Part shown: positions 11,448 through 47,099 of the stretch, in pieces
Layout of the letters: every line of letters starts with the position of its first letter
How positions within the stretch are numbered: position 1 is the stretch's first letter
Assembly (NCBI GenBank): GCA_035498715.1
Contig: DATJZV010000158.1
Span: 34,239-98,238, forward strand
From: Nitrospirota bacterium
Lineage (GTDB): Bacteria > Nitrospirota > UBA9217
Length of the DNA: 64,000 bases
Direction of reading: 5' to 3'
Notes under the pieces: generated by a model
What the model was told of the DNA's origin: nothing
Databases searched by the model: none
The model's input: only the letters and a program-made list of their open reading frames with translations
Position numbers and translations under genes: made by a program

Positions 11448-11476
11448 TTGACAAAATTTGGATACTGTTTTATTAT
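11448..11476 (+). promoter_or_regulatory. near-consensus sigma70 promoter (TTGACA, 17 nt, TATTAT)
   Basis: Perfect -35 hexamer, exact 17 nt spacer and a -10 hexamer with 5/6 match, 65 nt upstream of the aminotransferase start codon. Confidence 0.5.
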
Positions 11477-11540: not shown

Positions 11541-12716
11541 ATGCCTGAGCGTTTCGCCAGGATCAAGAGGCTACCACCCTATGTTTTCGCAATCGTCAAC
11601 GCCATGAAGATCGAGGCGCGCAGGCGAGGAGAGGACATCATCGATCTCGGTATGGGCAATCCTGATCAAGGCACGCCTCAGCATATAGTTGACAAATTGA
11701 TCGAGGCAGCCCAGAACCCCAAAAACCACCGCTATTCAGCGTCCAAGGGAATCACGAAGCTTCGCACAGCACTCTGCGATTGGTACAGACGGCGCTATGA
11801 CGTTGACCTCGACCCCGAGACCGAGGCCGTGGTAACAATCGGTTCTAAGGAAGGTCTGTCCCATTTGGCCCTGGCCACGATTGAACCCGGTGACGTTGTA
11901 CTGACCACCACCCCGGCCTATCCAATCCATCCATACAGTGTGATCATCGCGGGCGGCGAAGTGCGGTCCATACCCCTCAGGAAAGACAGCGATTTTTTCG
12001 CCGACATGCAGGAGGCGTTCAAGAACACCTGGCCCCGACCCAAGATGCTGATCATCAATTTCCCGAACAACCCGACCACAGCGGTCGTGGATGTGGCGTT
12101 CTTTCAGAAGATAGCGGATTTTGCCCGTGAGAATGATGTCATGGTAGTTCATGACCTGGCCTATGCGGACCTGAACTTCGACGGCTACCGTGCGCCGAGT
12201 TTCCTGCAGGCCAGGGGCGCGAAAGAAGTGGGTGTCGAGTTTTACAGCCTGACCAAGAGCTACAACATGGCCGGTTGGCGCGTGGGGTTCTGTGCGGGGA
12301 ACAAAGATGCGGTGGGCGCCCTCATTAAGATCAAGAGCTACCTCGACTACGGCATGTTCCAGCCTATACAGATCGCGTCCATCATCGCTCTGAACGGGCC
12401 GCAGGAGTGCGTAAAAGAAATCACCGATACATATCAATCCCGCCGGGACGTGCTCATAGATGGACTGAATAAGGCGGGTTGGAGCATTGAGAGACCTAAG
12501 GCGACCATGTTCGTCTGGGCTGAGATTCCTGAGCCCTTCAAGAGGATCGGATCGCTCGAGTTTGCGAAGCTGCTCATCAAAGAGGCCAAGGTGGCGGTCT
12601 CACCGGGCATCGGCTTCGGTGAATACGGCGACGGATATGTAAGATTCGCCCTGGTGGAGAACGAGCATCGTATCCGCCAGGCCGTAAAGGGCATTAAACA
12701 AGCAATCCAGAAATAG
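11541..12716 (+). CDS. class I PLP aminotransferase (aspartate/alanine aminotransferase type)
   Basis: 391 aa. Fold-type I aminotransferase motifs ([25 protein letters not shown] with the PLP-lysine). Same architecture as Thermus-type AspAT. Confidence 0.85.
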
Positions 12717-12811
12717 GGCTAAGGGTCGAGTAGCAGGAGATCCAGGGAGTAGAACAGAATCCACCTTTGGACCCGGCACGTTGACCCGTGACTGTTAGAG
12801 GGCGAAGAGAC

Positions 12812-14128
12812 ATGGCATCAAGAAAATCGATCACTGTAGGTATCATCGGCTTCGGCACGGTAGGAGCTGGCACGGCCCGCATTCTCATAGAGAATGCTGA
12901 AATAATCCGGAGAAGGCTTGGCTCGGCGGTAACGCTTAAGAAGATAGCCGATCTGGATGTCAAACGTGATCGGGGCATTCCGCTCAAGGGTGTTCAGCTT
13001 ACGACCAATGCGCAGGAAGTCCTGACCGATCCGGAGATCGACATCGTGGTTGAACTCATAGGCGGGTACAAGCCTGCAAAAGAATTCATCCTCGAGGCGA
13101 TCAGGAACAAGAAACACGTGGTGACCGCAAACAAGGCTCTCCTGGCAGTGCACGGGGAGGAGATCTATGCCGCCGCGGAAAAATCAGGAACGTCGGTCGG
13201 ATTCGAGGCATCGGTGGCAGGGGGCATCCCCATTCTTGCGGCCATCAGGAATGGTCTGGCCGCTAATAATATCAAGTCAATAAACGGTATTGTGAATGGC
13301 ACCTGCAACTATATCCTGACGCTCATGACGAACGCTGGCAGGAAGTTTGAGGAGGTTCTGAAAGAGGCGCAGGCAATGGGCTACGCCGAAGCGGACCCTA
13401 CGTTCGATATCGAGGGGATCGACTCTGCACACAAGCTCGCGATCCTGACTATGCTAACATACGGAACACCGGTGAAGTTCGAGGAGATCTACACGGAAGG
13501 GATCTCCAAGATCTTGCCGCTGGACATCGATTTCGCCAAAGATCTCGGCTACAAGATCAAGCTCCTCGCGATAACCAAGATGGTGGACGGCGAGATCGAG
13601 GCGCGGGTGCACCCGACGATGCTTCCCGAGGAGTACCCCATTGCTACAGTGGATGGTGTTTACAATGCGCTTTCAGTTGTCGGTGATGCCGTCGGGTCGA
13701 CGATGTTTTACGGGAGGGGAGCGGGAGATATGCCGACCGGAAGCGCTGTGGTGAGCGATATCATGGACATCGGAAGGGACATTCTGTCCGGGTGCGCTAA
13801 CCGGTCACCAGTGGCAGCGTTCCGGGAGCGTTCAACGCTAAAGATCAGGAAGATGGATGACATCACGTCGTGCTATTATCTCCGGTTCTCGGCGATTGAC
13901 AGACCGGGCGTGATGTCTCGCATCTCCGGGGTGCTCGGCAAGAATAATATCAGCATCTCTTCCGTGATCCAAAAGGGGCGGAAGGCGGCCGAAGCTGTGC
14001 CGGTCGTGATGATGACGCACGAAGCGGTTGAGCGGGATGTTCGCAGTGCCCTCGACGAAATAAATAGGATGGACTGTGTTGCCGGACCGACGATGGTCAT
14101 CAGAGTGGAGGAGGGCAAACAGGGGTAA
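12812..14128 (+). CDS. hom: homoserine dehydrogenase with C-terminal ACT domain
   Basis: NAD(P)-binding GIIGFGTVGAG motif, catalytic domain and C-terminal ACT regulatory domain. Start at MASRKS with an AGAGGGCGAAGAGA RBS. Confidence 0.9.
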   Translation: MASRKSITVGIIGFGTVGAGTARILIENAEIIRRRLGSAVTLKKIADLDVKRDRGIPLKGVQLTTNAQEVLTDPEIDIVVELIGGYKPAKEFILEAIRNKKHVVTANKALLAVHGEEIYAAAEKSGTSVGFEASVAGGIPILAAIRNGLAANNIKSINGIVNGTCNYILTLMTNAGRKFEEVLKEAQAMGYAEADPTFDIEGIDSAHKLAILTMLTYGTPVKFEEIYTEGISKILPLDIDFAKDLGYKIKLLAITKMVDGEIEARVHPTMLPEEYPIATVDGVYNALSVVGDAVGSTMFYGRGAGDMPTGSAVVSDIMDIGRDILSGCANRSPVAAFRERSTLKIRKMDDITSCYYLRFSAIDRPGVMSRISGVLGKNNISISSVIQKGRKAAEAVPVVMMTHEAVERDVRSALDEINRMDCVAGPTMVIRVEEGKQG

Positions 14129-14193: not shown

Positions 14194-14466
14194 ATGGAGG
14201 TAATGATGGCCGACGAAATCAAGGTTGATAAGACACTGGATATAAAAGGTCAAGTCTGCCCCTATACCTTCGTCCGATCGAAGCTGGCAATTGAGAAGAT
14301 GAACCTCGGCGAGGTGCTTGAGATCATCACAGATCACAGACCTGCGTCGGAAAATGTTCCAAAGAGCATGGAGAACGAGGGTCAAAAGGTTTTGAAGATC
14401 GAGCAAACGAGCGAAAAAGAGTGGCATATCTTTGTCAGAAAGGACAGAGAGAAGAAGAAAACGTGA
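14194..14466 (+). CDS. tusA: TusA-like sulfurtransferase (two-layered alpha/beta sandwich, CPxP motif)
   Basis: About 85 aa with the diagnostic CPYTF motif (VCPYTFVRSKLAIEKM) and LEI..D motifs of the TusA/SirA family. Confidence 0.8.
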   Translation: MEVMMADEIKVDKTLDIKGQVCPYTFVRSKLAIEKMNLGEVLEIITDHRPASENVPKSMENEGQKVLKIEQTSEKEWHIFVRKDREKKKT

Positions 14467-14543
14467 AATGTAAGACGTGAGAACCATGGCAAAGAGATTC
14501 TACTTCTCACGCTTAACGTCGAGCACTTTATGGTGGTTTAACA

Positions 14544-15347
14544 ATGGAATTTACAGAAGACCAGATACTCCGCTACAGCAGGCACATCCTGCTCCCTGAG
14601 GTCGGGGGAGACGGTCAGGAAAAGATCCTGAACGCCAAAGTTGTGCTCGTTGGCGCTGGCGGTCTCGGTTCGCCGGTGGGATACTATCTTGCGGCCGCAG
14701 GCGTGGGCACGATCGGCGTGATTGACAATGACCGCGTTGAGATGTCCAATCTCCAGCGCCAGATCGCGCACAACACGAGCCGAATCGGGGTGGACAAAGC
14801 TGATTCGGCAAAGCAGACGTATGAGACCCTGAACCATGATGTGAAGGTGGTGACACACAAGGAGCGTCTCACCTCCAAGAACATCATGCAGATCATTCGC
14901 GATTATGATATCGTTGTGGACGGGAGCGACAACTTTCCCACACGATATCTTGTGAACGACGCTTGCGTCATGCTCAAGAAAACGCTCGTGAGCGCGGCGG
15001 TGTTCCGTTTCGAAGGCCAGGTGATGACCATTTTCCCGGGCGAAGGGCCGTGCTATCGCTGCCTGTTCGAGGTTCCGCCGCCGCCGGGCATGGTGCCGTC
15101 ATGCCAGGAAGCCGGCATACTGGGCGTGGTAACCGGCGTGATCGGTACCATCCAGGCGACCGAGGTAATCAAGGCTATTCTAGGCATCGGGCATCCCCTT
15201 AAAGGGAGGCTTCTTCTGTGGAATGCGCTCGACATGAGCTTCCGTACGGTAAAGGTTCCCCGGAACCGTGAGTGTCCAGTCTGCGGTGAGCATCCAACGA
15301 TAAAAGAGCTTATCGATTACGAGCTGTTTTGCTCAATGAACCATTGA
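14544..15347 (+). CDS. MoeB/ThiF-type E1-like adenylyltransferase for a ubiquitin-like sulfur carrier (no rhodanese domain)
   Basis: 267 aa. Rossmann motif VVLVGAGGLGSP, RQ motif and two C-terminal CxxC pairs (CYRC...CPVCG). Ends without a rhodanese domain. Confidence 0.85.
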   Translation: MEFTEDQILRYSRHILLPEVGGDGQEKILNAKVVLVGAGGLGSPVGYYLAAAGVGTIGVIDNDRVEMSNLQRQIAHNTSRIGVDKADSAKQTYETLNHDVKVVTHKERLTSKNIMQIIRDYDIVVDGSDNFPTRYLVNDACVMLKKTLVSAAVFRFEGQVMTIFPGEGPCYRCLFEVPPPPGMVPSCQEAGILGVVTGVIGTIQATEVIKAILGIGHPLKGRLLLWNALDMSFRTVKVPRNRECPVCGEHPTIKELIDYELFCSMNH

Positions 15348-15387
15348 AGGCACTGTCAAGAGACAAGAGACGAGGGCATCTTTCCAG

Positions 15388-15795
15388 TTGCTGACGATAA
15401 AAAAGACCGATCTCGAGAGTATTTATGAGCATTGCAATAGCGTGTATCCCAATGAAGCATGCGGGATCCTTGCCGGCAGGGATAACAAGGTCCAAAAAGT
15501 TTATTCGCTCGTGAGTGAAATACCGAGTCCGGCATTTTATCAAATTGACTCGAAAGAGCACTTCCGGGTAATTCGGGAGATGCGGGAAGCGGGAATAGAT
15601 TTGGTTAGCATCTATCATTCGCATCCTGGCGGCCCGCCATTCCCGTCCTCAACCGATGTGGATTTGGCGTACTACCCGGAAGCAGTGTATGTGATCGTTT
15701 CGCTCATGGATAGACAGAATCCGGTCGCAAAAGGGTATAACATCATTAAAGGGGAAATTACGGAAGTTCCCTTGAGCATTATTCCGGAGGAATAA
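15388..15795 (+). CDS. JAMM/MPN+ metalloprotease (Mec+/CysLA family) that processes the MoaD/ThiS-like carrier
   Basis: 135 aa. JAMM motif with glutamate (NEACGIL) and HSHP..PSSTD (H-x-H-x7-S-x2-D). Confidence 0.85.
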   Translation: MLTIKKTDLESIYEHCNSVYPNEACGILAGRDNKVQKVYSLVSEIPSPAFYQIDSKEHFRVIREMREAGIDLVSIYHSHPGGPPFPSSTDVDLAYYPEAVYVIVSLMDRQNPVAKGYNIIKGEITEVPLSIIPEE

Positions 15796-15801
15796 TCGCA
15801 G

Positions 15802-17034
15802 ATGACATATGTTAAGGGGTTGCGGTGCGTAGAGTGCGGCAGGGAGTACAAAGTTGACCCCGCTTACGTATGCGAATTCTGTTTCGGGCCGCTCGAAGTC
15901 ACGTATGACTACGAGAGGATCAAGAAGGACATGACGAAGCAGAAGGTCGAGTCAAGGCCGCACCATATGTGGCGTTACCGCGAGCTCCTGCCGATCGACG
16001 GTGACCCGGTCACGGGCTTTGACACCGGCTTTACTCCGCTCATGAAAGCCCAGAACCTGGCCAAGGCATGGGGTGTGAAGGAGATATACTTCAAGGACGA
16101 CTCCGTGAACCATCCGACCCTTTCGTTCAAAGACCGGGTGGTGGCCGTGGCTATCACGAAGGCAAAGGAGTTCGGATTCGATACGGTGGCATGCGCATCG
16201 ACAGGCAACCTTGCCAACTCCGTGGCAGCGCAGGCCGCGCGGGCGGGCATGAAGCGGTTTATATTCACGCCGGCCGACCTTGAGCTTTCTAAGACCATTA
16301 ATTCGCTCGTTTACCAGCCGAATCTGGTGACAGTGGATGGGAATTACGACGAGGTGAACCGCCTTTGCTCAGAGGTCGCGAACAAGTATCCATGGGCCTT
16401 TGTGAACATCAATATCCGGCCGTTCTATGGCGAGGGCTCGAAATCCTTGGGATTCGAGATCGCCGAGCAGCTCGGGTGGAAGACGCCGCACAACATTGTG
16501 GTGCCCAACGCCAGCGGTTCGCTCATGACCAAGATTTGGAAGGCTTTTAAGGAGCTAGAGAAGATCGGTCTTGTCCCACCGGTGAAAACCAGGGTGTTCG
16601 CGGCACAGGCCACAGGTTGCAATCCGATCGCTGCGGCGATCAAGGATGGGAGCGACATCGTTAAGCCGGTTAAGCCGAAGACAATAGCCAAGTCCCTTGC
16701 GATCGGGAACCCAGCTGACGGATACTATGCGGTAAAGGTCACGAGGGATACGGGCGGGTTCGGAGCGGATTCGTCGGACCAGGAGATCGTGGATGCGATC
16801 AAGCTTCTTGCCGAGACCGAAGGCGTGTTTGCCGAGACGGCAGGCGGTGTGACCGTATCAGCGGCCAAAAAACTCATCGATGCAGGTAAGATACCGAAGG
16901 ACGAGACACTCGTCATCTGCATCACCGGCAACGGACTTAAGACTACCGAGGCAGTCATTGACCATCTCAAGCGGCCGACTCCGATCAAGCCGAATATCGA
17001 CTCTTTCGAGAAACTGCTGAAGAAAATCAGTTAA
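15802..17034 (+). CDS. threonine-synthase-family PLP enzyme with N-terminal zinc ribbon (ThrC-like; candidate O-phosphohomoserine sulfhydrylase / homocysteine synthase, or a bona fide ThrC)
   Basis: 410 aa. N-terminal CxxC-x17-CxxC ribbon (CVECG...CEFCFGPLE). PLP-lysine motif SFKDRV. Fold-type II (PALP) architecture similar to ThrC. Confidence 0.85.
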   Translation: MTYVKGLRCVECGREYKVDPAYVCEFCFGPLEVTYDYERIKKDMTKQKVESRPHHMWRYRELLPIDGDPVTGFDTGFTPLMKAQNLAKAWGVKEIYFKDDSVNHPTLSFKDRVVAVAITKAKEFGFDTVACASTGNLANSVAAQAARAGMKRFIFTPADLELSKTINSLVYQPNLVTVDGNYDEVNRLCSEVANKYPWAFVNINIRPFYGEGSKSLGFEIAEQLGWKTPHNIVVPNASGSLMTKIWKAFKELEKIGLVPPVKTRVFAAQATGCNPIAAAIKDGSDIVKPVKPKTIAKSLAIGNPADGYYAVKVTRDTGGFGADSSDQEIVDAIKLLAETEGVFAETAGGVTVSAAKKLIDAGKIPKDETLVICITGNGLKTTEAVIDHLKRPTPIKPNIDSFEKLLKKIS

Positions 17035-17147
17035 TTTGGTAACAGAGCCACAGGGGACACGATGAAATACAGAAAATGCTGTTCTTCTTTGCCTCAACGT
17101 GTCTGTGGCAGTCATTTCAGTTGAATCGCATTTTCAGGAGGAAAGAC

Positions 17148-17426
17148 ATGGCGATTAAAGTGAGGATCCCGACTCCCTTGCAAAAGCTCACGAACGGCAG
17201 GGCCGATGTGGAGTGCGACGCGAGGAACATCGTGGAGCTTGTCGACGCCTTGGAGAAGGACTTTCCGGGCATGAAGGAGCGGCTCTCAGAGGGCGGTAAG
17301 ATCCGGCGGTTTATTAATATTTACGTGAACGAAGAGGACATTCGCTTTGTGAACAAGGAAGAGACCACTCTGAAGGACGGCGATAATGTCTCGATCGTGC
17401 CGGCAATTGCCGGTGGGACGCGGTAA
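17148..17426 (+). CDS. MoaD/ThiS-family ubiquitin-like sulfur carrier protein with C-terminal GG-TR extension
   Basis: 92 aa from the ATG at 17148 with an AGGAGG RBS. The beta-grasp-like sequence ends ...SIVPAIAGGTR, so the di-glycine is followed by two extra residues that would need JAMM cleavage. Confidence 0.75.
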   Translation: MAIKVRIPTPLQKLTNGRADVECDARNIVELVDALEKDFPGMKERLSEGGKIRRFINIYVNEEDIRFVNKEETTLKDGDNVSIVPAIAGGTR

Positions 17427-17534
17427 AGACCTTTACCAAAGAGAGAACTTGTAACGCAGAGTAGACCATTCGAAATTCAAGGTTATGATCTCTGTGCCCC
17501 TGCAACCTCTGCAGCAATAATACAAGGAGGCCAC

Positions 17535-17777
17535 ATGGCAACCAAGAGGGTTAAGCTTACGTTTCCGCAGGAACTGATCAAGGAACCGGTGATTTTCACC
17601 ATGGCAAGGAAATTCGATGTGATGCCGAATATCCGCCGTGCCAAGGTTACCGAAAGCGTGGGTGAGGTAGTGCTTGAACTTGAAGGGGCGGAGAAAAAAC
17701 TCGAGGAAGGCATCAAGTATCTCAAAGAGCGCGGCGTAAAGGTAGAGGCCGTTGAAGGCGATGTCGTCAGTTCATAA
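17535..17777 (+). CDS. stand-alone NIL-domain protein (MetN C-terminal-like domain)
   Basis: 80 aa matching the NIL-domain pattern (DVMPNIRRAKV...GEVVLELEG...GVKVEAV). Gene context is sulfur amino-acid metabolism. Confidence 0.6.
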   Translation: MATKRVKLTFPQELIKEPVIFTMARKFDVMPNIRRAKVTESVGEVVLELEGAEKKLEEGIKYLKERGVKVEAVEGDVVSS

Positions 17778-17919
17778 ATACAGAGAACGCGATTACTAAG
17801 ATTATGACGACTCAGGTGGACGCGGTCGCCTAGGCATCCAGATTCTCAAAGGGTTCAAGGACAATGGTTGCGAGTCGATGAAACTAAATGCCGTGTCCTC
17901 TGACCCTTTATTTATATTT

Positions 17920-19149
17920 ATGAAATATATAATATTACTCGGTGATGGAATGGCCGACAGGCCGCATGCAGAGCTCGGGGGCAAGACCTGCCTGCAGGCG
18001 GCGAAAACTCCAAACCTTGACCGGCTTGCTACCCTCGGAACGGTGGGGATGGTGCATACAATTCCTGAGGGGTTTCCGCCTGGCAGTGACGTAGCCAACC
18101 TTACGGTGATGGGGTATGACCCGAGGAAATACTATACGGGCCGTTCCCCGCTCGAGGCTGCGAGCATCGGCGTTAAACTGGAGCCGGATGACGTTGCCTT
18201 TCGCTGCAATCTGGTGACGCTTCGTATCATCGGTGGAAAATCCTCAGCATCGGGCGCTGTGCGGCGTGCGATCATGGAAGATTTCAGCGCGGGCCATATC
18301 CCCACGCAGGAGGCCCGTCTGCTCATCGAGGAGATTAACAGTAAGCTCGGTAGCGACCGTATCCGTTTCTACCCCGGCGTGAGCTACCGCCACCTTATGG
18401 TTTGGAAAGGCGGCAAGGACAAGATTGATTGCACGCCGCCGCACGATATCCAGGACAAGGATATTCAGGACTACCTCCCGCGCGGAGAAGGAGATGAAGT
18501 TCTAAATGCCCTTATGGAATCGTCAACAGACCTGCTCCTGCACCATCCTGTTAATAAAGCCAGGGTCGAGAATGGCAAGCGCCCGGCGAACAGTATCTGG
18601 CTATGGGGGCAGGGGAAGAGGCCGAGCATGCCTACCTTCAGAGAAAAATACGGCCTCGAAGGGGCGATGATCTCCGCTGTGGACCTAACTAAAGGCATCG
18701 GCATCTATGCGGGGTTCGAGGTGATCAACGTACCGGGAGCCACAGGCTGGATCGATACCAACTACGTTGGCAAGGCAGAGCATGCGCTCTGGGCGCTCAA
18801 GACAAAGGACGTTGTCTATGTTCATGTGGAAGCGCCGGATGAAGCTGGCCATACCGGCGATCTTAAAAACAAGCTCAAGGCCATCGAAGACTTTGATGAA
18901 TACGTTGTAGGCAACATCATTCACGGGATGAAACAGTTCGATGAATATCGTATCCTGGCGCTCCCGGACCATCCGACGCCGCTCGAGATCAGGACGCACA
19001 CGAACGAACCCGTACCCTTTGTCATTTACGACAACAGGTCGGAACGCAAAGGCGGGCCTGTGGCCTACGATGAGCGAATCGCGGAGCGTAAAGATGCTTT
19101 GGTGTTCAAGGAAGGGCATGCGCTGATGGATTATTTCCTGAAGAAATAG
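17920..19149 (+). CDS. cofactor-independent phosphoglycerate mutase, archaeal-type (ApgM family); in this context a predicted functional analog of homoserine kinase
   Basis: About 409 aa. Metalloenzyme-superfamily motifs (LLGDGMADRP, HVEAPDEAGH). It sits between the sulfur-carrier module and lysC. The start is uncertain (ATG at 17920 or 17878). Confidence 0.8.
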   Translation: MKYIILLGDGMADRPHAELGGKTCLQAAKTPNLDRLATLGTVGMVHTIPEGFPPGSDVANLTVMGYDPRKYYTGRSPLEAASIGVKLEPDDVAFRCNLVTLRIIGGKSSASGAVRRAIMEDFSAGHIPTQEARLLIEEINSKLGSDRIRFYPGVSYRHLMVWKGGKDKIDCTPPHDIQDKDIQDYLPRGEGDEVLNALMESSTDLLLHHPVNKARVENGKRPANSIWLWGQGKRPSMPTFREKYGLEGAMISAVDLTKGIGIYAGFEVINVPGATGWIDTNYVGKAEHALWALKTKDVVYVHVEAPDEAGHTGDLKNKLKAIEDFDEYVVGNIIHGMKQFDEYRILALPDHPTPLEIRTHTNEPVPFVIYDNRSERKGGPVAYDERIAERKDALVFKEGHALMDYFLKK

Positions 19150-19296
19150 CGTGAAATTCTTGCACACCAATGGCATGAAGGGACGTATGACACGAACTAA
19201 AAAGAAGGACAAAGCCCACTCGTGTCATTCGGAATGGTCGAGTAACTCGTCTGAATCAGCTTTTCTGTTTTCAAGAACTGTAATGGAGGGAAGAGG

Positions 19297-20514
19297 GTGC
19301 TCATAGTACAGAAATACGGCGGTACCTCCGTCGGGAACCCTGAACGGATCAAGAATGTGGCGCAGCGCGTCTGCCGCACAAAAGAGGAAGGCCACGATGT
19401 CGTAGTGGTCGTCTCGGCCATGAGCGGCGAGACGGACAAACTCATCAACCTTGCTTCGATGGTGACCGAGAACCCGGATCCGCGAGAGATGGACATGCTC
19501 GTGTCAACAGGCGAGCGAGTGACGATTGCGCTCCTTGCCATGGCGATCCATTCGCTTGGGCACAAGGCGCAGTCGTTCACCGGGCGGCAGGCGGGGATCA
19601 TTTCGGACAGCGTCCATACGAAGGCGCGGATCGAGAAGATCACGGGCGATCGGCTCAGGCAGGCGATCAAGGAAGGCAAGATCGCGGTGGTTGCGGGCTT
19701 CCAGGGCATCAATGACCAGTCCGACGTAACGACGCTCGGCCGCGGCGGTTCTGATCTCACGGCCGTGGCTGTTGCTGCGGCGCTCAAGGCTGATTTTTGC
19801 GATATCTACACGGATGTGGATGGTGTGTATACTACGGACCCGAACATGGTGCCGCAAGCCAGAAAACTTGACAAGATATCCTATGATGAAATGCTCGAGA
19901 TGGCGAGCCTTGGGGCCAAGGTGCTTCAGACCCGCTCTGTCGAGTTCGCAAAAAAATACAATGTTCCGGTGAGAGTGCTCTCGAGCTTCAATGATAACCC
20001 CGGGACCCTCGTGACCAGGGAGGATTCTGATATGGAGAAAGTGGTGGTGTCCGGCGTGGCATACGATAAGAACCAGGTAAAGGTGACGGTCACGGGCGTA
20101 CCGGACAAACCGGGTGTGGCGGGCAGGATATTCAATGAGATCGCCGACAACAATATCATTGTTGACATGATCATCCAGAATATCGGCGAAGGCGGACTTA
20201 CAGACATGTCCTTTACCGTGCCCAAGACCGACTCACGGAAGATCATGGAGGTCATGAAGAAGGTCGTGGCCGAGATTGACGCCAAGGGCGTAAATCTCAA
20301 AGAAGATATCGCCAAAGTGTCGATCATCGGGGTGGGCATGCGCTCGCACTCTGGCGTTGCCGCTAAGATGTTCTCTTCTCTGGCAAAAGAAGGGATCAAT
20401 ATCATGATGATCAGCACGTCAGAGATCAAGATCTCCTGTGTGATTGATGCCAAGTACACGGAGCTCGCCGTCAGAGTGCTCCACGAGACATTTGAGATGG
20501 ACAAGGCAGCGTAG
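19297..20514 (+). CDS. lysC: aspartate kinase with tandem C-terminal ACT domains
   Basis: GTG start with a GGAGGGAAGAGG RBS. Motif KYGGTSV and the amino-acid kinase fold. Two ACT domains at the C-terminus. Confidence 0.9.
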
Positions 20515-20577
20515 GAAGGGCAGCGATCAAAGGGCAGAGCACTGTTCTCTGTGTACTCTGTACCATGCGACATAAAA

Positions 20578-22170
20578 ATGAAGACTACTGTTCATTTATA
20601 CGACACCACGCTCCGCGACGGCGCACAGGCTGAGGACGTGAACTTCTCGGTAGAGGATATGGTGCGCGTGGCCAAAAAGCTCGACCAGTTCGGGGTGCGC
20701 TATATCGAAGGCGGCTGGCCCGGCTCCAACCCCCGTGACGTTGAGTTCTTCAAAGAAATGCGTCGCGTCAAGCTGAGAAAAGCCAGGCTTGTTGCCTTCG
20801 GCGCCACGCGGCGGGCAAATCTTAAGGCTTCGGAAGACCCGAGTCTCAAGGCACTTGTTGACTCGGGAGCGTCTACGGCGACCATCTATGGAAAAAGCTG
20901 GGACCTCCATGTCCTCAAGGCTCTCAAAACCACCCTTGAGGAAAACCTTCGGATTATCAGCGATTCCGTGGCGTTCCTCAAAAAACATATGGATGACGTG
21001 TTCTACGACGCGGAGCACTTCTTCGATGGATACAAGGCTAATGCCGAATATGCCATTCAGACGCTGCTCGCTGCCGAGTCCGCGGGGGCTGACTGCCTGG
21101 TACTGTGCGATACGAACGGCGGTACCCTGCCGAATGACCTGGAACGAATCGTCACAAACGTCAAGCGACGGATAAAAACGCCCTTTGGAATTCATGCACA
21201 TAACGACTCCGATCTTGCCGTGGCAAATTCTCTAGCCGCGATCAGAATGGGAGCACTGCAGGTGCATGGGACCATCAACGGATACGGCGAACGGTGCGGA
21301 AATGCAAATCTCTGCTCCATTATCCCAGCGCTCAAGTTAAAGATGGGAATCGACTGCATCTCCGACGCGAACCTCTCGAAACTGAGAGAAGTATCCCGGT
21401 ATGTGGATGAACTCGCGAATCTTCCGCACCGCAAGCGGCAGCCCTATATCGGAGACAGCGCCTTCGCGCACAAGGCCGGCGTGCACGTCGATGCGGTGAC
21501 GAAGAACCCCCTCACGTACGAGCATATTATACCGGAACTGGTCGGCAACAAACGGCGCATCCTTGTCTCGGATCTTGCTGGGAAAAGTAATATTCTTCAG
21601 AAGGCAGGCGAACTTAATATCCCGCTCTCCAAGAATAGCCCAGAACTTATCACGATCCTCAAGAAAGTCAAGCAGCTGGAAAACGAAGGGTATGAGTTCG
21701 AGGGTGCCGAGGGCTCGCTTGAACTGCTCATGCTGCGCGCTGGGCATAATTATGAGTCGGTCTTCAATATGTTCGATCGCATTGATTATCGTATCTTGAC
21801 CGAAAAGCGGAAGGTTGACCCTCATCCGGTGAGCGAGGCTACGGTCACGGTAGAGGTCGGAGGGAACATCGAGCATACTGCCGCTTGGGGAAATGGTCCC
21901 ATCAATGCTTTGGACAAGGCGCTCCGCAAGGTGCTGCCGAAATATTTCCCCGGCAGGGGGCTGGAGAACGTGCGGTTGATAGACTACAAGGTGCGGGTGC
22001 TGACCGCGGCCGAAGGCACGGCTGCGCGAGTGCGGGTGCTGATTGAGTCAGGAGACGGCACGAATAAATGGGGTACGGTCGGAGTGTCCGAAAACGTGAT
22101 TGAAGCGAGCTGGCAGGCTCTCGTAGACAGCATCGAATACAAGCTTCTGCGGACGGCGAAGAAGAAATAG
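20578..22170 (+). CDS. cimA: (R)-citramalate synthase / 2-isopropylmalate synthase family, LeuA type 2 (CimA-like)
   Basis: About 530 aa. N-terminal DRE-TIM motif (LYDTTLRDGAQAED) and C-terminal LeuA dimerisation/regulatory domain. Length and N-terminus match type-2 LeuA/CimA. Confidence 0.8.
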   Translation: MKTTVHLYDTTLRDGAQAEDVNFSVEDMVRVAKKLDQFGVRYIEGGWPGSNPRDVEFFKEMRRVKLRKARLVAFGATRRANLKASEDPSLKALVDSGASTATIYGKSWDLHVLKALKTTLEENLRIISDSVAFLKKHMDDVFYDAEHFFDGYKANAEYAIQTLLAAESAGADCLVLCDTNGGTLPNDLERIVTNVKRRIKTPFGIHAHNDSDLAVANSLAAIRMGALQVHGTINGYGERCGNANLCSIIPALKLKMGIDCISDANLSKLREVSRYVDELANLPHRKRQPYIGDSAFAHKAGVHVDAVTKNPLTYEHIIPELVGNKRRILVSDLAGKSNILQKAGELNIPLSKNSPELITILKKVKQLENEGYEFEGAEGSLELLMLRAGHNYESVFNMFDRIDYRILTEKRKVDPHPVSEATVTVEVGGNIEHTAAWGNGPINALDKALRKVLPKYFPGRGLENVRLIDYKVRVLTAAEGTAARVRVLIESGDGTNKWGTVGVSENVIEASWQALVDSIEYKLLRTAKKK

Positions 22171-25151: not shown

Positions 25152-26408
25152 ATGTATAGAAAAGACACCCTTTCCAACGGGATGCGGGTCGTATCCGAAA
25201 CACTGCCAAAATCGCGGTCCGTATCCATCGGCGTGTGGGTGAAGGTGGGATCTCGCCATGAACCGCAGGAGATAGGCGGGATATCTCACTTCATCGAGCA
25301 CCTGTTCTTCAAGGGCACGGAGAAGCGGACCGCCAAAGATATTGCGATCGAAATGGACTCTCTCGGCGGCGAGATGAATGCATTCACCTCGCAGGAAACG
25401 ACCACCTATTATGCCAAGGTCGTGGACGAGCACCTGCCGGTGGCCGTCGATATCCTTTCGGACATCCTCCTTGGCTCCAAGTTCGACCCTATTGAAATGG
25501 AAAAGGAACGCAAGGTAATCCTTGAAGAGATCAAGGGGGTGGAGGACACGCCCGATGACTATATCCACGAGTTCTTCACGAGCACGGTCTGGCCAGACAA
25601 TCCGTTAGGCCGCCCCATCCTCGGGACAAAAGAGACCATTAGAGCGCTCAAACACCAGGATATCATTTCCTACATCGACCATTATTACAGCCCTAAGGAG
25701 ATCGTGATATCCGTTGCCGGCAATTTCGAACACGCCCGACTGATTGAACTGCTGGATACGAGCTTCGGAAGGCTCTCGCGGGCAGGCGTTCCCAAGAAAG
25801 AGGTGACTCCCGAATTCAGCCATGCCGTGGCGGTGAGGAAGAAACAGCTCGAGCAGGTGCAGGTCTGTATCGGGTGCAGGGGAATGAATTACATGCATGA
25901 AGACCGCTACGTGATCTCGGCGCTCAACACCGTGCTCGGGAACAGCATGAGCTCGCGACTGTTTCAGGAGGTGCGCGAACAGAACGCCCTCGCTTATTCC
26001 ATCTATTCCTATGTGACCTCGTACCGCGATACGGGGCTGCTCACGGTGTATGCCGGAACCGACCCGACGAACACGCTCGAGGTGCTGCGGCTCGTGACCA
26101 GAGAGCTCAAAAAGATCAAGGACGAGGGAATAACGCAGGCGGAAGAGATGCGGGTAAAGAACCAGATCAAGGGGAACCTTGTCCTTTCCCTCGAGAGCAG
26201 CAACAGCCACATGAGCAGGCTGGCAAGACAAGAGATCTATTTCGGAAAATACATCTCGATCGATGATATCATTAGGGGCGTAGAAAAAGTGACCTCGGAG
26301 GAAGTCCAGCGGCTTGCCCAGCAACTTTTCACACGGGACAATATCTCCCTCGCGATCCTCGGTCCCCTGAGCAGGGCTGATGTGCCGGATTCGGTTTTGG
26401 AGATATGA
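25152..26408 (+). CDS. M16 family zinc metallopeptidase (pitrilysin-like, cytoplasmic; inverted zincin HxxEH)
   Basis: 418 aa with the HFIEHLFFKGT motif. No signal peptide. Confidence 0.85.
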   Translation: MYRKDTLSNGMRVVSETLPKSRSVSIGVWVKVGSRHEPQEIGGISHFIEHLFFKGTEKRTAKDIAIEMDSLGGEMNAFTSQETTTYYAKVVDEHLPVAVDILSDILLGSKFDPIEMEKERKVILEEIKGVEDTPDDYIHEFFTSTVWPDNPLGRPILGTKETIRALKHQDIISYIDHYYSPKEIVISVAGNFEHARLIELLDTSFGRLSRAGVPKKEVTPEFSHAVAVRKKQLEQVQVCIGCRGMNYMHEDRYVISALNTVLGNSMSSRLFQEVREQNALAYSIYSYVTSYRDTGLLTVYAGTDPTNTLEVLRLVTRELKKIKDEGITQAEEMRVKNQIKGNLVLSLESSNSHMSRLARQEIYFGKYISIDDIIRGVEKVTSEEVQRLAQQLFTRDNISLAILGPLSRADVPDSVLEI

Positions 26409-26491
26409 TAGTCAAAAGGCAGCGCGCATGGAGTTATTGAGCGCGGTGATGACAAGACAATGCCCTATGCTCCTGCTTTCGTCAGGAAAAT

Positions 26492-26947
26492 ATGCCCAGC
26501 CATCTCGTTGTACACATAACACAGCTCAAAAATTCCGAAGGACTCCCCATCCCGCACTACCAGACAGAGCACTCTGCAGGTATTGACCTGTATGCAGCTG
26601 TTGTCGGCGAGACGGTCATCGAGGCAGGAATGTGGAAACTGGTCCCGACAGGTATCGCGATTGCTATTCCCGAAGGATATGAAGGACAGGTCCGGCCCCG
26701 AAGCGGTCTCGCGCTCAAGCACGGCATAGGCATGCTGAATGGGCCCGGCACCATCGACGCCGATTACCGTGGAGAGATCGGTGTCATCCTTTTCAATTTC
26801 AGCGCTAAGCCGTTTTCCATTCATCGCGGCGATCGCATTGCCCAGATTGTTTTCGCAAAGATAGAGAAGGCGAAGCTCGTGCGGGTGGATGTGCTTTCCG
26901 AGACCGCGAGGGGTAAGGGAGGGTTCGGACACACGGGAGAGAGATAA
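26492..26947 (+). CDS. dut: dUTP diphosphatase
   Basis: About 150 aa with dUTPase motifs (SAGIDLYA, RSGLALKHGI, GTIDADYRGEIGVILFN, RIAQIV). C-terminal glycine-rich motif V present. Confidence 0.85.
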   Translation: MPSHLVVHITQLKNSEGLPIPHYQTEHSAGIDLYAAVVGETVIEAGMWKLVPTGIAIAIPEGYEGQVRPRSGLALKHGIGMLNGPGTIDADYRGEIGVILFNFSAKPFSIHRGDRIAQIVFAKIEKAKLVRVDVLSETARGKGGFGHTGER

Positions 26948-26982
26948 GGCAAATTCAAAGTCCAAAAGTAAAGGTTGGTGAA

Positions 26983-28308
26983 TTGATCATGGAATATGTA
27001 AAATCAGTCATACTGCTTTTCCTGTATACGGTATTCGTTGTAACGCCTGCCCTGGGGCAGGACATGAAAGTTACCGAAAAGGTTCTTCCGAACGGACTCA
27101 AGGTGCTGCTCAAGGAAGAGCATAAGGCGCCGGTAATCACGTTCCAGATCTGGTACAAGGTCGGTTCACGGAACGAAAAGCTCGGGACGACCGGCATGTC
27201 GCACCTGCTTGAGCACATGATGTTCAAGGGAACAAAAAAGTACGGGCCCAAGACCTTTTCCCAAACCGTGATGCGGAACGGAGGAAATGACAACGCATTC
27301 ACCGGCAAGGACTATACCGCCTATTTCGAGAACTTTGCAGCAGATCGTATCGGTATCTCGCTCGATCTCGAGTCAGATCGCATGCAGAACCTGCTCATCG
27401 ATCCCAAGGAGTTCCTGTCCGAACGAGAGGTGGTTAAGGAAGAGCGCCGCATGAGGACGGATGACGACCCGACATCGACTATGGTGGAAGAGATGACGGC
27501 AGCCGCGTTCATCGCCCATCCCTATGAGTGGCCGGTGATCGGCTGGATGGCGGACATCAATAACATTACCCGCGACGACCTCTATAATCACTATCATACG
27601 TACTACGCACCGAACAATGCAACCATCGTTATGGTCGGTGATTTTGATACGAAGGCGATTCTCCCTCAAATAGAAAAGTATTTCGGTTCCATTCCGCGCG
27701 GACCAGATGTACCCAGGGTCGCTGCGGTCGAGCCCAGACAACTGGGTGAACGCAGGATTATTGTTAAGAAGCAGGCAGAGCTTCCGGCTGTTTTTGCCGG
27801 TTACCATACGCCTGATCTTAAGGACAAGGACTCCTATGCCCTTGAGGCCCTGCAGGGCATCCTCTCATCAGGCAAGAGTTCCCGCTTGTACAAGTCGCTC
27901 GTATACGAAAAACAGCTCGCGCTCTACGCCGGAGGTGATTACGACAACATTGCAAACGACCCGAATCTGTTCTACGTCTATGCCGGCGTGATGCCTGGAA
28001 AGACCACAGAGGAGGTGGAGAAAGCGCTCTATGCCGAGATCGAAAAGCTCAAGACAACGCCGGTTACCGACGAAGAGCTCCAGAAGGCAAAGAACCAGAT
28101 TGAAGCTGGCTTCATCATGGGGCAGGATTCGGTATTCTACCAGGCAATGCTTCTCGGTCAGTATGAGACCGTCGCGAACTGGAAGCTTCTCGAGAAATAC
28201 CTGGAGAATATCCGCGCGGTCACCAAGGAAGATATTCAGCGCGTGGCAAAAGAATATTTCTCAGAGGACAATAGGACGGTAGGGATACTGGTGCCAACAA
28301 AGAATTAA
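26983..28308 (+). CDS. secreted M16 peptidase, active subunit (HxxEH present)
   Basis: Signal peptide plus the HLLEHMMFKGT zinc-binding motif. 441 aa. Confidence 0.85.
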   Translation: MIMEYVKSVILLFLYTVFVVTPALGQDMKVTEKVLPNGLKVLLKEEHKAPVITFQIWYKVGSRNEKLGTTGMSHLLEHMMFKGTKKYGPKTFSQTVMRNGGNDNAFTGKDYTAYFENFAADRIGISLDLESDRMQNLLIDPKEFLSEREVVKEERRMRTDDDPTSTMVEEMTAAAFIAHPYEWPVIGWMADINNITRDDLYNHYHTYYAPNNATIVMVGDFDTKAILPQIEKYFGSIPRGPDVPRVAAVEPRQLGERRIIVKKQAELPAVFAGYHTPDLKDKDSYALEALQGILSSGKSSRLYKSLVYEKQLALYAGGDYDNIANDPNLFYVYAGVMPGKTTEEVEKALYAEIEKLKTTPVTDEELQKAKNQIEAGFIMGQDSVFYQAMLLGQYETVANWKLLEKYLENIRAVTKEDIQRVAKEYFSEDNRTVGILVPTKN

Positions 28309-28346
28309 CGATTGCAAATTTAACAATGAGAACGCGAGGCGAAAAA

Positions 28347-29681
28347 ATGAAGCTTACAAGGTACACACTTCTTATTATACTGACGGTGGTTTGTCAGTTC
28401 TCCCAAAAAGCATCAGCCGCCGAGCTGATCGGCAAGCGCATCTCGCTCGAAAACGGCATGGTCCTGTTACTCTCTGAGAAGCATGACATCCCAATGGTCA
28501 TGGTGAACATGGCGATCAAGGCAGGGAGCACAGCGGAACCCGAGGACAAGCCCGGCATTGCATCGATCACTGCGTCGCTGCTCATGCAGGGTACATCAAA
28601 AAGGCCGGCCGGCAGGATCAACAGCGAGATCGACTTCATCGGTGGGTCGCTCTCCGTATCCGGGGGAAACGACTTCGCCTCGGCAAGCCTGCGGGTTCTC
28701 AAGAAAGACTTACGAACGGGCCTTGACCTGCTCTCCGATGTCCTCATGAACCCCGTTTTCGACCAGAAAGAGATCGACCGCAAGGTCAAGGAAATCCTTG
28801 CTGAGATCCAGCGGCAAAAAGAAGATCCGGACAATGTTGCTGGTGAGGCATTCACGAAAGCGGTGTACGGCAGACATGCGTATGGGAGGACGAGCGACGA
28901 CGTGGCTGCCTATCTGCCAAAGCTTACGCGGCAGGACGTCGTAAATTTCTATTCGGAGCGTTACAGCCCGAACAGCATTATCATTGCCGTTGTCGGGGAC
29001 GTGAACGAAAAAGAAATAATTGGTCTTCTCCAGGAATACTTCAAGGGATGGAAGCGGAGCGATCAGCCTCTTCCTGCTTCCATTCCGCCGTTGGTGATAG
29101 AGAAAACCGTTGTACGGAAGATCGACAAGAACATTACCCAAGCGAATATCGAATTAGGCAATATCGGTATCAGCAGGGAAAACCCCGATTATTACGCCGT
29201 GATTGTCATGAACTACATACTCGGCGGAGGTGGTTTTTCTTCCCGGCTTATGGATAATATCCGGGACAACAAAGGGTTGGCATATGACGTGCATAGCGTA
29301 TTTTCGGCGCAGAAAGAATCGGGAGCATTCTCGGTCAGCATCCGGACGAAGAACGAGTCCGCGAACGAAGTGATTGCCGAGACGCTGAAGGAAATCCGGA
29401 AGATACAGGCGGAGCCTGTATCCGATAAGGAACTTGCCGATGCCAAGGCATACTTAACGGGAAGTTTTCCATTGAAGATGGACACATCCGCGAAGATCGC
29501 CGGGATGCTGACGTTCATCGAGATCTATAACCTCGGTCTCGATTATCCCCAGAAGTATTCTGCGATGATAAACGCCGTGACCAGAGAGGATATCAAACGG
29601 GTAGCGCAGAAGTACCTTCATCCCGACAGTTTGGTTATCGTGGTAGTTGCAAACCTGGAAAAGGCGAAGTTGAACTATTGA
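28347..29681 (+). CDS. secreted M16B peptidase-like subunit lacking HxxEH (non-catalytic partner)
   Basis: M16 fold with a signal peptide (LLIILTVVCQFSQKASA) but no HxxEH motif. Adjacent to the active subunit, as in heterodimeric M16B pairs. Confidence 0.8.
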   Translation: MKLTRYTLLIILTVVCQFSQKASAAELIGKRISLENGMVLLLSEKHDIPMVMVNMAIKAGSTAEPEDKPGIASITASLLMQGTSKRPAGRINSEIDFIGGSLSVSGGNDFASASLRVLKKDLRTGLDLLSDVLMNPVFDQKEIDRKVKEILAEIQRQKEDPDNVAGEAFTKAVYGRHAYGRTSDDVAAYLPKLTRQDVVNFYSERYSPNSIIIAVVGDVNEKEIIGLLQEYFKGWKRSDQPLPASIPPLVIEKTVVRKIDKNITQANIELGNIGISRENPDYYAVIVMNYILGGGGFSSRLMDNIRDNKGLAYDVHSVFSAQKESGAFSVSIRTKNESANEVIAETLKEIRKIQAEPVSDKELADAKAYLTGSFPLKMDTSAKIAGMLTFIEIYNLGLDYPQKYSAMINAVTREDIKRVAQKYLHPDSLVIVVVANLEKAKLNY

Positions 29682-34388: not shown

Positions 34389-34532
34389 GGTGATTACGGA
34401 TTTCTGAGTGCGGTATCCGGGGATCCGTGAAACGATGATTGAGAAGAGCGTGGAACCATCAGTTTCAGCGCCGTGTAATCTCTGTTGGTCTGCGAAAACT
34501 GCGTTCCCTGCAGTCTCAAGGAATTATCAAGA

Positions 34533-35429
34533 ATGGCAAAGCGGAGTGCAAAAGCGGAAAAAATTAACATCGGCGTTATCGGCGGCAGCGGCTTATACGA
34601 AATGGAAGGGCTGACCCAAGTGATCACCATGAAGGTCACGACGCCCTTCGGCAAACCCTCGGACGACTACATCATCGGCACGCTGCATGGCAAGCGCGTG
34701 GCGTTCCTGCCCCGGCATGGCCGCGGCCATCGTATTCTACCAACGGACATCAACTACCAGGCGAACATCTACGGCATGAAGAAGCTCGGCGTGGAGCGGA
34801 TCATCTCGGTGAGCGCAGTCGGCAGCATGAAGGAAGAGATTAAGCCCGGTGATATCGTGATCCCTGGCCAGTTCTATGATCACACCAGACAACGGCGGAG
34901 CACCTTCTTTGGTAACGGCATCGTAGCGCACGTGGGAATGGCCGATCCGGTGTGCATCTACCTCTCCGAGATTCTTGTGCAGTCAGGTATTGCCGTAGGG
35001 GCCACGGTGCACCGGGGCGGTACGTACCTGTGCATGGAGGGACCGCAGTTTTCGACACGCGCCGAGTCGCTAACCTATCGGAAGTGGGACGTCGACGTGA
35101 TCGGCATGACAAATGCCACCGAGGCCAAGCTCGCTCGCGAGGCCGAGATATGCTACAGCACCATTGCTCTGGCGACGGACTATGACTGCTGGCACCACAG
35201 CGAAGAGGCCGTGACCGTGGAAGCGGTGCTGGCGGTCATGAAGAAGAACATCGAAACATCCAAAGATATGATCCGTGAAGCTGTCCGGGTCCTGCCGGAG
35301 ACGAGATCGTGCGGATGCAGTGAGTCGCTCAGGAACACGATCATGACGCCCGAGAATCTGATCCCATTCAAGACGAAAAAGGATCTGATTCCCATTATCG
35401 GGAAGTACATGAAAGGCCGGAAGTCGTGA
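34533..35429 (+). CDS. mtnP: S-methyl-5-prime-thioadenosine phosphorylase (PNP/MTAP family)
   Basis: Motifs IGVIGGSG, PRHGRGH, VIGMT and TEAKLARE typical of MTAP/MtnP. Confidence 0.85.
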   Translation: MAKRSAKAEKINIGVIGGSGLYEMEGLTQVITMKVTTPFGKPSDDYIIGTLHGKRVAFLPRHGRGHRILPTDINYQANIYGMKKLGVERIISVSAVGSMKEEIKPGDIVIPGQFYDHTRQRRSTFFGNGIVAHVGMADPVCIYLSEILVQSGIAVGATVHRGGTYLCMEGPQFSTRAESLTYRKWDVDVIGMTNATEAKLAREAEICYSTIALATDYDCWHHSEEAVTVEAVLAVMKKNIETSKDMIREAVRVLPETRSCGCSESLRNTIMTPENLIPFKTKKDLIPIIGKYMKGRKS

Positions 35430-47094: not shown

Positions 47095-47099
47095 GGTGA

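Follow-up and report, generated by a model that had tools for sequence, protein, structure and literature searches.

A MetM/MetO-type protein-thiocarboxylate route to homocysteine predicted in an aspartate-family operon of a Nitrospirota bacterium

In this study, we analysed a stretch of 64,000 nucleotides from an uncultured Nitrospirota bacterium (assembly GCA_035498715.1, contig DATJZV010000158.1, positions 34,239 to 98,238; hereafter the window), in which six co-directional open reading frames (ORFs) at 14194-17777 encode a TusA-family sulfur carrier, an E1 adenylyltransferase, a JAMM metalloprotease, a threonine synthase (ThrC)-like pyridoxal phosphate (PLP) enzyme, a ThiS-family carrier protein and a NIL-domain protein. 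As far as can be judged from sequence, these genes and their neighbours very probably form a complete MetM/MetO-type protein-thiocarboxylate route to homocysteine within an aspartate-family operon. MetM, a ThrC homolog, and MetO, a sulfur carrier protein, form homocysteine from O-phosphohomoserine and are assisted by the accessory enzymes Mec and MoeZ (Hasebe et al. 2024, as reported in the GapMind 2026 preprint). The initial annotation of this DNA had suggested that homocysteine is made here by the ThrC-like enzyme from O-phosphohomoserine and a carrier thiocarboxylate, and had pointed to MetM and MetO in Streptomyces. That work exists (Hasebe et al. 2024, Appl Environ Microbiol; both the GapMind 2026 preprint and PMC12172450 refer to it), and the suggestion itself is supported by the clade to which the enzyme belongs, by its paralogy with ThrC and by the presence of a homoserine kinase of the HomK family, all of which is comparative evidence.

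First, the module exists as it had been described: the six ORFs were all found at these coordinates, and each domain proposed for them was matched by a Pfam profile, namely TusA (PF01206, 77 bits), ThiF for the E1 (PF00899, 283 bits), Prok-JAB for the JAMM protease (PF14464, 88 bits), PALP for the PLP enzyme (221 bits, plus an N-terminal zinc-ribbon match), ThiS for the carrier (PF02597, 59 bits) and NIL (PF09383, 68 bits). The catalytic and binding motifs given for TusA, the E1, the JAMM protease, the PLP enzyme and the carrier were likewise located in the translations. All features of the operon lie on the plus strand.

The zinc-ribbon ThrC-like enzyme, which we assign to the MetM type (15802-17034), is central to this assignment. 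Its motifs are CVEC at residue 9, CEFC at residue 24 and SFKDRVV at residue 108. It scores 276 bits on the TIGR00260 thrC model and thus passes the cutoff of 167, its best solved relatives are threonine synthases, and 'threonine synthase' is the name given by every public source in which the protein or a close relative is named. The TIGR00260 model does not separate MetM-type proteins from ThrC, and MetM is often misannotated as ThrC (GapMind 2026 preprint).

We built a neighbour-joining tree with 200 bootstraps, with support computed for data-driven groups, from the window protein, sampled loci of a genome scan, the nearest 50%-cluster representatives, a riboswitch-linked protein of Nonomuraea gerenzanensis, canonical ThrC and other zinc-ribbon families. 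In this tree, one group, which we call clade A, unites the window protein with the Nonomuraea protein, the sampled loci and the nearest cluster representatives at 200/200, and canonical ThrC is split from all zinc-ribbon proteins, also at 200/200, so that the window protein stands outside bona fide ThrC. The window enzyme is about 37-38% identical to canonical ThrC and 52-53% identical to the Nonomuraea protein. The zinc ribbon, which had been presented as an addition peculiar to this version of the pathway, turned out to be family-wide, its four cysteines all being retained in 17 of the 18 tabulated members of clade A, the riboswitch-controlled one included. It is not diagnostic of the clade either, because other zinc-ribbon ThrC-like families (34-39% identity) fall outside clade A in the tree. 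Among the zinc-ribbon families that lie outside the MetM-type clade and lack R206/Y209 are the representatives P0286, P0296 and P0320-P0365 and the haloarchaeal plasmid thrC matches H2-H18.

The signature of clade A distinguishes it from canonical ThrC at five places: R206/Y209 where ThrC has N/R, VV instead of GM after SFKDR, LA instead of TS after STGN, A300 instead of R and G307 instead of W. These positions fall inside conserved motifs of ThrC, and R206/Y209 are invariant across clade A. The canonical motif residues (SFKDR-GM, STGN-TS, the N..R of NPxR.EGQK and RIGNP.SW) are not carried by the window enzyme.

Relatives of the window possess both types of gene. In the locus L001, whose zinc-ribbon enzyme is 69% identical to that of the window, the enzyme is accompanied by ThiS, NIL, a 362-aa canonical ThrC (TIGR00260, 326 bits), HomK, lysC and cysM, and a canonical thrC is found between NIL and HomK in the same operon in 12 related Nitrospirota genomes. 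These operon copies are 58-66% identical to the annotated thrC of other bacteria, several of which are located beside thrB; they are 62% identical to a second Nonomuraea gene and about 37% identical to the window protein. The canonical thrC copy of Nonomuraea is located at 2.50 Mb. When the nearest canonical ThrC was used in a homologue search, only proteins of at least 77% identity were returned; they came from lineages in which the operon retains thrC, and none could be linked by accession series to the lineage of the window.

The family is widely distributed. In a scan over species-representative genomes, in which the zinc-ribbon family was counted at 58% identity or more, it was found in over 15 phyla, the hosts including Nitrospirota, Omnitrophota, Planctomycetia, Elusimicrobiota, Verrucomicrobiota, Nitrospinota, Nitrospira, Zetaproteobacteria, Aquificaceae, Dehalococcoidia, Rokubacteria, Methylomirabilota, Thermodesulfobacteriota and others. 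Our locus set comprises 84 loci; carrier counts are given over the 81 loci with room downstream and NIL counts over 75. Paralogy, distribution, phylogeny and signature together place the window enzyme, at the level of its sequence, in an orthologous group different from canonical ThrC. In metagenome-assembled genomes (MAGs) of Aquificaceae/Aquifex, a clade-A enzyme with R206/Y209 (60-63% identity) is encoded at L043:148-1377 and L047:2317-3546, with no carrier, NIL, E1 or JAMM gene adjacent. Aquifex was listed without any known homocysteine route (Price et al. 2018), and the clade-A enzyme of Aquificaceae may be a candidate to fill this gap.

The regulation of the family also links it to methionine. 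On the 11.85-Mb replicon of N. gerenzanensis, taken from a plasmid collection, an S-adenosylmethionine (SAM) riboswitch (RF00162, 68.7 bits) lies directly before the zinc-ribbon enzyme gene, which is followed by the gene of a 91-aa ThiS-like carrier ending in GG. The metM gene of S. albulus has a SAM riboswitch upstream as well (PMC12172450), and the two architectures therefore match. Moreover, SAM riboswitches (72-98 bits) are found directly upstream of the enzyme gene or of the operon in eight of 24 further scanned loci, in MAGs labelled Verrucomicrobiia, Dehalococcoidia, Acidiferrales, various Proteobacteria and others. These riboswitches are regulatory evidence, independent of homology, for a role of clade A in methionine/SAM synthesis.

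The genes surrounding the module are those that would supply its substrate. Aspartate kinase is the first step of the aspartate family, and Hom supplies homoserine. Here, hom (12788-14128), with a C-terminal ACT domain, passes NF004976 with 555 bits (cutoff 205; Pfam Homoserine_dh, NAD_binding_3 and ACT), and lysC (19297-20514), which has ACT domains and ends the conserved block, passes NF005155 with 653 bits (cutoff 346). The module had been regarded as inserted between these two genes; the comparison with related assemblies reveals instead a conserved aspartate-family operon. The six genes that had been counted stand, but the end of the module had been set too early, as a further gene at 17920-19149 (start possibly at 17878) had been missed. 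It encodes HomK, a phosphoglycerate-mutase-like homoserine kinase/phosphotransferase, which passes its family cutoff (TIGR02535 'proposed homoserine kinase', 569 bits against 446) and adjoins the hom/lysC context, and also thrC in relatives. The HomK family is named in the GapMind 2026 preprint; its member BT2402 rescues an Escherichia coli thrB mutant, and the family therefore makes O-phosphohomoserine.

Several observations weigh against the assignment to the MetM type. Membership was judged with the Nonomuraea protein as a proxy, S. albulus MetM and MetO being compared by their described architecture, and the biochemistry and genetics for clade-A proteins are confined to Streptomyces. No SAM riboswitch was detected in the 64-kb window, even at E<=1; the cyanobacterial MetM homolog is also devoid of one (PMC12172450), and for this reason the riboswitch is probably not a defining feature. 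The E1, JAMM and TusA genes are clustered with the enzyme in a minority of the loci (35/84, 21/84 and 17/84, respectively) and might have other clients. The cyanobacterial MetM homolog makes threonine from O-phosphohomoserine in vitro and is not a full MetM in vivo (PMC12172450). Finally, the 64-kb window contains no second ThrC-family gene, and canonical thrC is absent from the operon in the sub-lineage of the window (L003, L005, L006 and L007), where it was lost from the position that it holds in sister lineages.

These last points, together with the threonine synthase activity of the cyanobacterial protein and the score of the window enzyme above the TIGR00260 cutoff, would fit a bifunctional zinc-ribbon enzyme, which would be the sole threonine synthase here and would in addition make homocysteine when the carrier thiocarboxylate is available. 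We consider this explanation, which overlaps with a MetM-type role, to be unlikely. Both paralogs are present in every checked genome with enough data, that is, in the 12 Nitrospirota relatives and in Nonomuraea. For Aquifex, the two paralogs come from different records, namely a canonical ThrC of known structure (2zsj, which we take to be the A. aeolicus threonine synthase) and a clade-A gene from a MAG that bears the label Aquifex aeolicus. Furthermore, every clade-A signature residue is found in the window protein, at sites where canonical ThrC invariably has another residue, and a thrC gene may simply be located in another part of the genome.

The MetM-type assignment further relies on the carrier, a 92-aa protein of the CysO/MetO type encoded at 17148-17426. 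Its start had been set at 17076; the real start is the ATG at 17148, which gives the conserved N-terminus MAIKVRIPTPL and is preceded by a GGAGG ribosome-binding site. At the C-terminus, G89-G90 are followed by Thr-Arg. The best solved relatives of the carrier, 4n6e_B (E 5.7e-21) and Mycobacterium tuberculosis CysO 3dwg_C (E 6.3e-18), identify it by homology as a relative of the CysO-type thiocarboxylate carriers. The carrier family is tightly conserved (median identity of 59%), and its gene lies directly downstream of the enzyme gene in 65/81 loci and anywhere in the locus in 74/81. The MoaD models remain below their cutoffs (TIGR01682, 19 bits against 66; TIGR01687, 44.8 against 49.5), as do the ThiS equivalog models, and neither moaE nor thiG is found among the annotated neighbouring genes.

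These data also bear on a more conventional explanation, in which the enzyme would be an ordinary threonine synthase, the carrier, E1, JAMM and TusA would serve molybdopterin or thiamin synthesis, tRNA thiolation or protein tagging, and the clustering would be incidental. It agrees with the uniform public annotation as threonine synthase, with the score of the E1 above the MoeB subfamily cutoff (NF004281, 302 bits against 266) and with matches of the carrier, the E1 and the JAB protein to the archaeal SAMP system, all of which are sub-threshold (SAMP1, 45.9 against 60; UbaA, 338 against 450; desampylase, 75.6 against 130). The MoaD and ThiS models are not passed either, and the carrier is CysO-like. 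Moreover, incidental clustering is difficult to reconcile with an enzyme-carrier adjacency that is kept across more than 15 phyla, with SAM riboswitches that control this pair in other genomes and with the canonical thrC that co-resides in relatives. We therefore regard this explanation as highly improbable. The module is not an anti-phage system either. An E1/E2-JAB system of the CBASS Cap2/Cap3 type was excluded: the match is limited to the adenylation part (about 135/523 positions, 71 bits), the anti-phage JAB profile reaches 30 bits and the other four module proteins have no match to the anti-phage profiles.

The resemblance of the carrier to CysO raises another question, namely whether O-phosphoserine is the substrate of the module and cysteine or another thiol its product, in which case the ThrC-like enzyme would act like CysM or like cysteate synthase, a ThrC descendant. 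CysM-type enzymes and JAMM proteins often share the cluster in other phyla, and the N-terminal region of the window enzyme weakly matches the cysteate synthase model TIGR03844 (55 bits against a cutoff of 325). We had considered a single carrier shared by CysM and the ThrC-like enzyme, and revised this view as Planctomycetia loci have separate carriers. Their clusters contain two carrier-enzyme pairs, a plain small ThiS with CysM and a ThiS-NIL fusion with the ThrC-like enzyme. A separate small CysM-linked carrier is present in 11 of about 30 CysM-containing loci; small CysM-linked ThiS are encoded at L088:2720-3859, where ThiS is fused to CysM, and at L089:2472-3628, within the sulfate-assimilation cluster of the ThrC-like enzyme. 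A CysM with its own carrier implies that the ThrC-like enzyme is not redundant with CysM. In addition, the SAM riboswitches are methionine/SAM-specific, the enzyme gene stands between hom and HomK, and NIL domains are linked to methionine. Altogether, production of cysteine or of a thiol other than homocysteine is very hard to sustain and has, in our view, a minimal probability.

For a MetM-type route, the carrier would have to be activated and charged with sulfur. The E1 (14544-15347), a MoeB/ThiF-type adenylyltransferase, has GAGGLG at residue 37, CYRC at residue 170 and CPVC at residue 244, and neither a rhodanese nor an E2 domain was found in it by Pfam and profile searches. TusA (14194-14466), with its Cys22-Pro motif, had been proposed to substitute for the missing rhodanese domain. 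The distribution follows the expected direction, TusA being found in 0/4 of the loci with E1-rhodanese (MoeZ-like) fusions against 16/31 of those with a rhodanese-less E1, but the difference is not significant (hypergeometric, 3876/52360 = 0.074). A 787-aa protein made of a sulfite reductase (NIR_SIR) with a C-terminal TusA, confirmed by Pfam, is encoded in the cluster at L044:11977-14340, and TusA-containing ORFs of similar size (779-792 aa) occur in the L025, L050, L061 and L067 clusters, which were matched to it by size, the Pfam confirmation applying to L044. This fusion points to TusA as the putative entry point for sulfur and suggests that the carrier system may receive sulfide or persulfide straight from sulfite reduction.

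The JAMM/MPN+ metalloprotease (15388-15795; E23, H77-S-H79 and S87..D90) would act on the carrier's C-terminus. The tail that follows the Gly-Gly varies from none to 13 residues, which fits its removal before activation. In three loci (L036:12102-13169, L025:9253-10335 and L069:9235-10302), the carrier is fused ahead of the E1 in proteins of 355-360 aa, ThiS then ThiF; as the E1 follows the Gly-Gly, such fusions require cleavage after it. Furthermore, carrier-NIL fusions of 171-190 aa, confirmed by Pfam, are encoded in six loci that span at least four phyla, the order being carrier, AIAGG, short linker and NIL (L023:9297-9815, L028:9288-9803, L030:9275-9790, L024:6334-6906, L059:3020-3535 and L022:3041-3475; Planctomycetia, Omnitrophota, Syntrophaceae and Thermodesulfobacteriota). 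The best 120 database clusters all contain both the carrier and the NIL domain, which amounts to at least 120 clusters with the fusion architecture. Because NIL sits after the Gly-Gly, the fused carrier cannot be activated before cleavage, and the architecture implies that the JAMM protease must cut NIL off, much as ubiquitin is released from its fusion precursors. A JAMM protease that cleaves a MoaD-MoaE fusion is a published precedent, for which we refer to its citation in PMC11237513. JAMM is present in the five of the six carrier-NIL loci that have usable flanks. Across loci, we also looked at whether JAMM tracks the carrier tails and observed a weak trend only (fusions, 3/4; tails of 2-13 aa, 4/10; 1-aa tails, 2/12; no tail, 3/12); JAMM may be encoded elsewhere.

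The NIL protein (17535-17777), a stand-alone protein of 80 aa without cysteine, is a frequent partner of this pair, its gene lying no more than 2.5 kb downstream of the enzyme gene in 59/75 loci. The family has no conserved cysteine, which means that NIL is not a sulfur relay. The AlphaFold model of one carrier-NIL fusion (mean pLDDT of 83) has two confident domains, and its only internal low-confidence stretch corresponds to residues 88-92, I-A-G-G-A. The N-terminal domain of the model superposes on CysO with a TM score of 0.89, and the C-terminal domain on the selenomethionine-bound C2 domain of MetN (3tuz) with an rmsd of 1.0 Å over 73 residues. PDB entry 1v8c, a Thermus thermophilus 'MoaD related protein' of 168 aa, aligns end to end with the fusion model, with a different domain orientation, and may be a solved example of the two-domain carrier. 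N32 and A36 of NIL, which are at least 90% conserved, align with N295 and A299 of MetN. In MetN, N295 forms a hydrogen bond with the bound L-methionine, and the N295A substitution renders methionine binding undetectable (PMC6233128). Moreover, the pairing seen in Planctomycetia, where the ThrC-like enzyme is paired with the NIL fusion and CysM with the plain ThiS, indicates that NIL belongs to the methionine branch.

We tentatively propose methionine, or a closely related compound, as the ligand of NIL, and regulation or docking of the carrier-enzyme pair as its role; this is the least certain step of our proposal. NIL might even be a dedicated methionine-sensing partner of the carrier of the methionine branch, the bound methionine gating the ThrC-like enzyme or else the maturation or charging of the carrier, an idea that we put forward as a possibility and no more firmly than that. 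If true, it would represent a post-translational feedback on homocysteine synthesis, a layer of control undescribed for any protein-thiocarboxylate pathway. A literature search, whose coverage left out many subscription papers, returned no link between a NIL domain and a sulfur carrier. While the pathway itself is known, we did not find in the searchable literature a description of NIL as an almost constant companion in which the Asn that binds methionine in MetN is retained, nor of the carrier-NIL fusion. We also considered NIL and the riboswitch as alternative feedback devices and rejected this idea, the riboswitch being present in 5/16 NIL-less and in 3/8 NIL-containing loci.

Taken together, these data lead us to propose the following route. 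Hom would produce homoserine, which HomK, according to the activity known from the literature, would convert to O-phosphohomoserine. The JAMM protease would trim Thr-Arg from the 92-aa carrier and expose its Gly-Gly, a step that we infer from the variable tails, from the fusions that require cleavage and from the MoaD-MoaE/JAMM precedent. The E1 would then adenylate the terminal glycine of the carrier, and a persulfide on Cys22 of TusA, in place of a MoeZ-type rhodanese domain, would turn the acyl-adenylate into a thiocarboxylate. The ThrC-like enzyme would eliminate phosphate from O-phosphohomoserine as ThrC does, with the carrier thiocarboxylate, not water, attacking the gamma carbon. Homocysteine would be released from the carrier, probably with the help of JAMM by analogy with CysO/CysM/Mec+ and HcyS/HcyD, and NIL would most likely bind methionine and tune or dock the carrier-enzyme pair. 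All these enzymatic activities are predicted from the observed family memberships, gene neighbourhoods, ThrC paralogy, riboswitch control and fusion architectures.

R206/Y209, combined with carrier adjacency, provides a simple rule to re-annotate 'threonine synthase' genes across more than 15 phyla, with many uncultured lineages among them. Such a re-annotation may close apparent gaps of the methionine pathway in metabolic reconstructions, Aquificaceae being possibly one case. In addition, the NIL partner and the carrier-NIL and carrier-E1 fusions offer handles on the maturation, and perhaps on the end-product regulation, of a bacterial ubiquitin-like sulfur carrier.

The whole co-directional block comprises, in this order, genes for an aminotransferase, hom, tusA, the E1, JAMM, the ThrC-like enzyme, the carrier, NIL, homK, lysC and a cimA-like protein, with intergenic gaps of 6 to 147 bp. 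The first gene (11541-12716) encodes a class I, alanine-transaminase-like aminotransferase (NF006033, 664 bits against a cutoff of 647). A promoter-like site upstream of it (11448-11476) matches at 11/12 positions and is the best in the region; in the promoter and terminator scan of this region, the counts of sites were not above those of shuffled sequences. A contig with a 100%-identical enzyme (GCA_035516155.1, locus L005) can be aligned with the window over no more than 6.2 kb, where the nucleotide identity is 98% (window 15369-21581, L005 9570-15779), and the upstream neighbours differ, with ribosomal S6, SSB and S18 in L005 and argD and argF in the window. This suggests strain recombination or a chimeric assembly.

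Elsewhere in the window, we noted a PNP_UDP_1 phosphorylase (34485-35429) and an IF-2B-family protein (44930-45991). These families include methylthioadenosine phosphorylase and methylthioribose-1-phosphate isomerase, and the two genes may thus be methionine-salvage genes. An arn-like operon for the aminoarabinose modification of lipid A occupies 46165-53386 on the minus strand and encodes a deacetylase, an epimerase/dehydratase, a formyltransferase, a GT2 glycosyltransferase, a DegT aminotransferase and an ArnT-like transferase. Three genes of M16 (insulinase-type) peptidases lie at 25152-29681, with a gap of 574 bp between the first and the second, and a 299-aa ORF at 36527-37426 has no Pfam match at E<=1e-5.

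Among known systems, MetM/MetO of S. albulus resembles the window module in having a ThrC-homologous PLP enzyme beside a ThiS-like carrier, O-phosphohomoserine as the substrate (predicted for the window) and an E1 and a JAMM protein as accessories. The likeness extends by proxy to the 200/200 clade and to R206/Y209, both common to the window enzyme and to the riboswitch locus of Nonomuraea. The window differs in that it has no SAM riboswitch, in that its E1, unlike MoeZ, has no rhodanese domain, tusA being present instead, and in that E1, JAMM, HomK, hom and lysC are gathered in one operon. Its carrier also has a Thr-Arg tail, and the carrier gene is followed by NIL, which is absent from the Nonomuraea locus and from the list of steps given for MetM/MetO in GapMind.

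The CysO/CysM/Mec+/MoeZ system of M. tuberculosis shares with the window a CysO-type carrier, a JAMM hydrolase, a ThiF-type E1 and the attack of the thiocarboxylate on a phosphorylated amino-acid substrate. Here, the PLP enzyme is ThrC-like, so that the product would be homocysteine and not cysteine, and the E1 has no rhodanese domain. The 64-kb window does not contain any CysM homolog, while CysM is present in many other clade-A loci. In Wolinella succinogenes, HcyS, HcyD, HcyF and MetY reportedly make homocysteine from a carrier thiocarboxylate, MetY acting on O-acetylhomoserine; the C-terminal extension of the carrier is said to be removed by a metalloprotease, and a sulfite reductase to be linked to the cluster. 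The carrier thiocarboxylate and the combination of a tailed carrier with a metalloprotease are thus common to both systems, and a sulfite reductase is also found in some of the loci studied here. The enzymes differ, MetY being of fold type I, whereas the window has a fold-type II ThrC-like enzyme predicted to act on O-phosphohomoserine, and no MetY-like gene is present among the annotated ORFs of the window.

Finally, two systems are related to the window through NIL. The initial annotation had stated that NIL-domain proteins are implicated in homocysteine synthesis in methanogens; this is correct, but the protein concerned is a fusion of NIL to a 4Fe-4S ferredoxin that belongs to a different, DUF39-based route. 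In this L-aspartate-semialdehyde sulfurtransferase route, found in methanogens and Desulfovibrio, a NIL domain is also tied to homocysteine synthesis, homoserine is not an intermediate (Price 2018) and the NIL domain was described as methionine-binding and regulatory (PMC12068725). In contrast, the NIL protein of the window is devoid of the ferredoxin domain and of cysteines, hom and HomK flank the module, and no DUF39 (COG1900) protein is encoded among the annotated ORFs of the window. With the C2 (NIL) domain of MetN, from the MetNI methionine importer, the window protein shares the fold, and the methionine-contacting Asn295 and the interface residue Ala299 are matched by N32 and A36; here, however, NIL is carried not by an ABC ATPase but by a free protein of 80 aa or, in the fusions, by the carrier itself, behind which it is placed.

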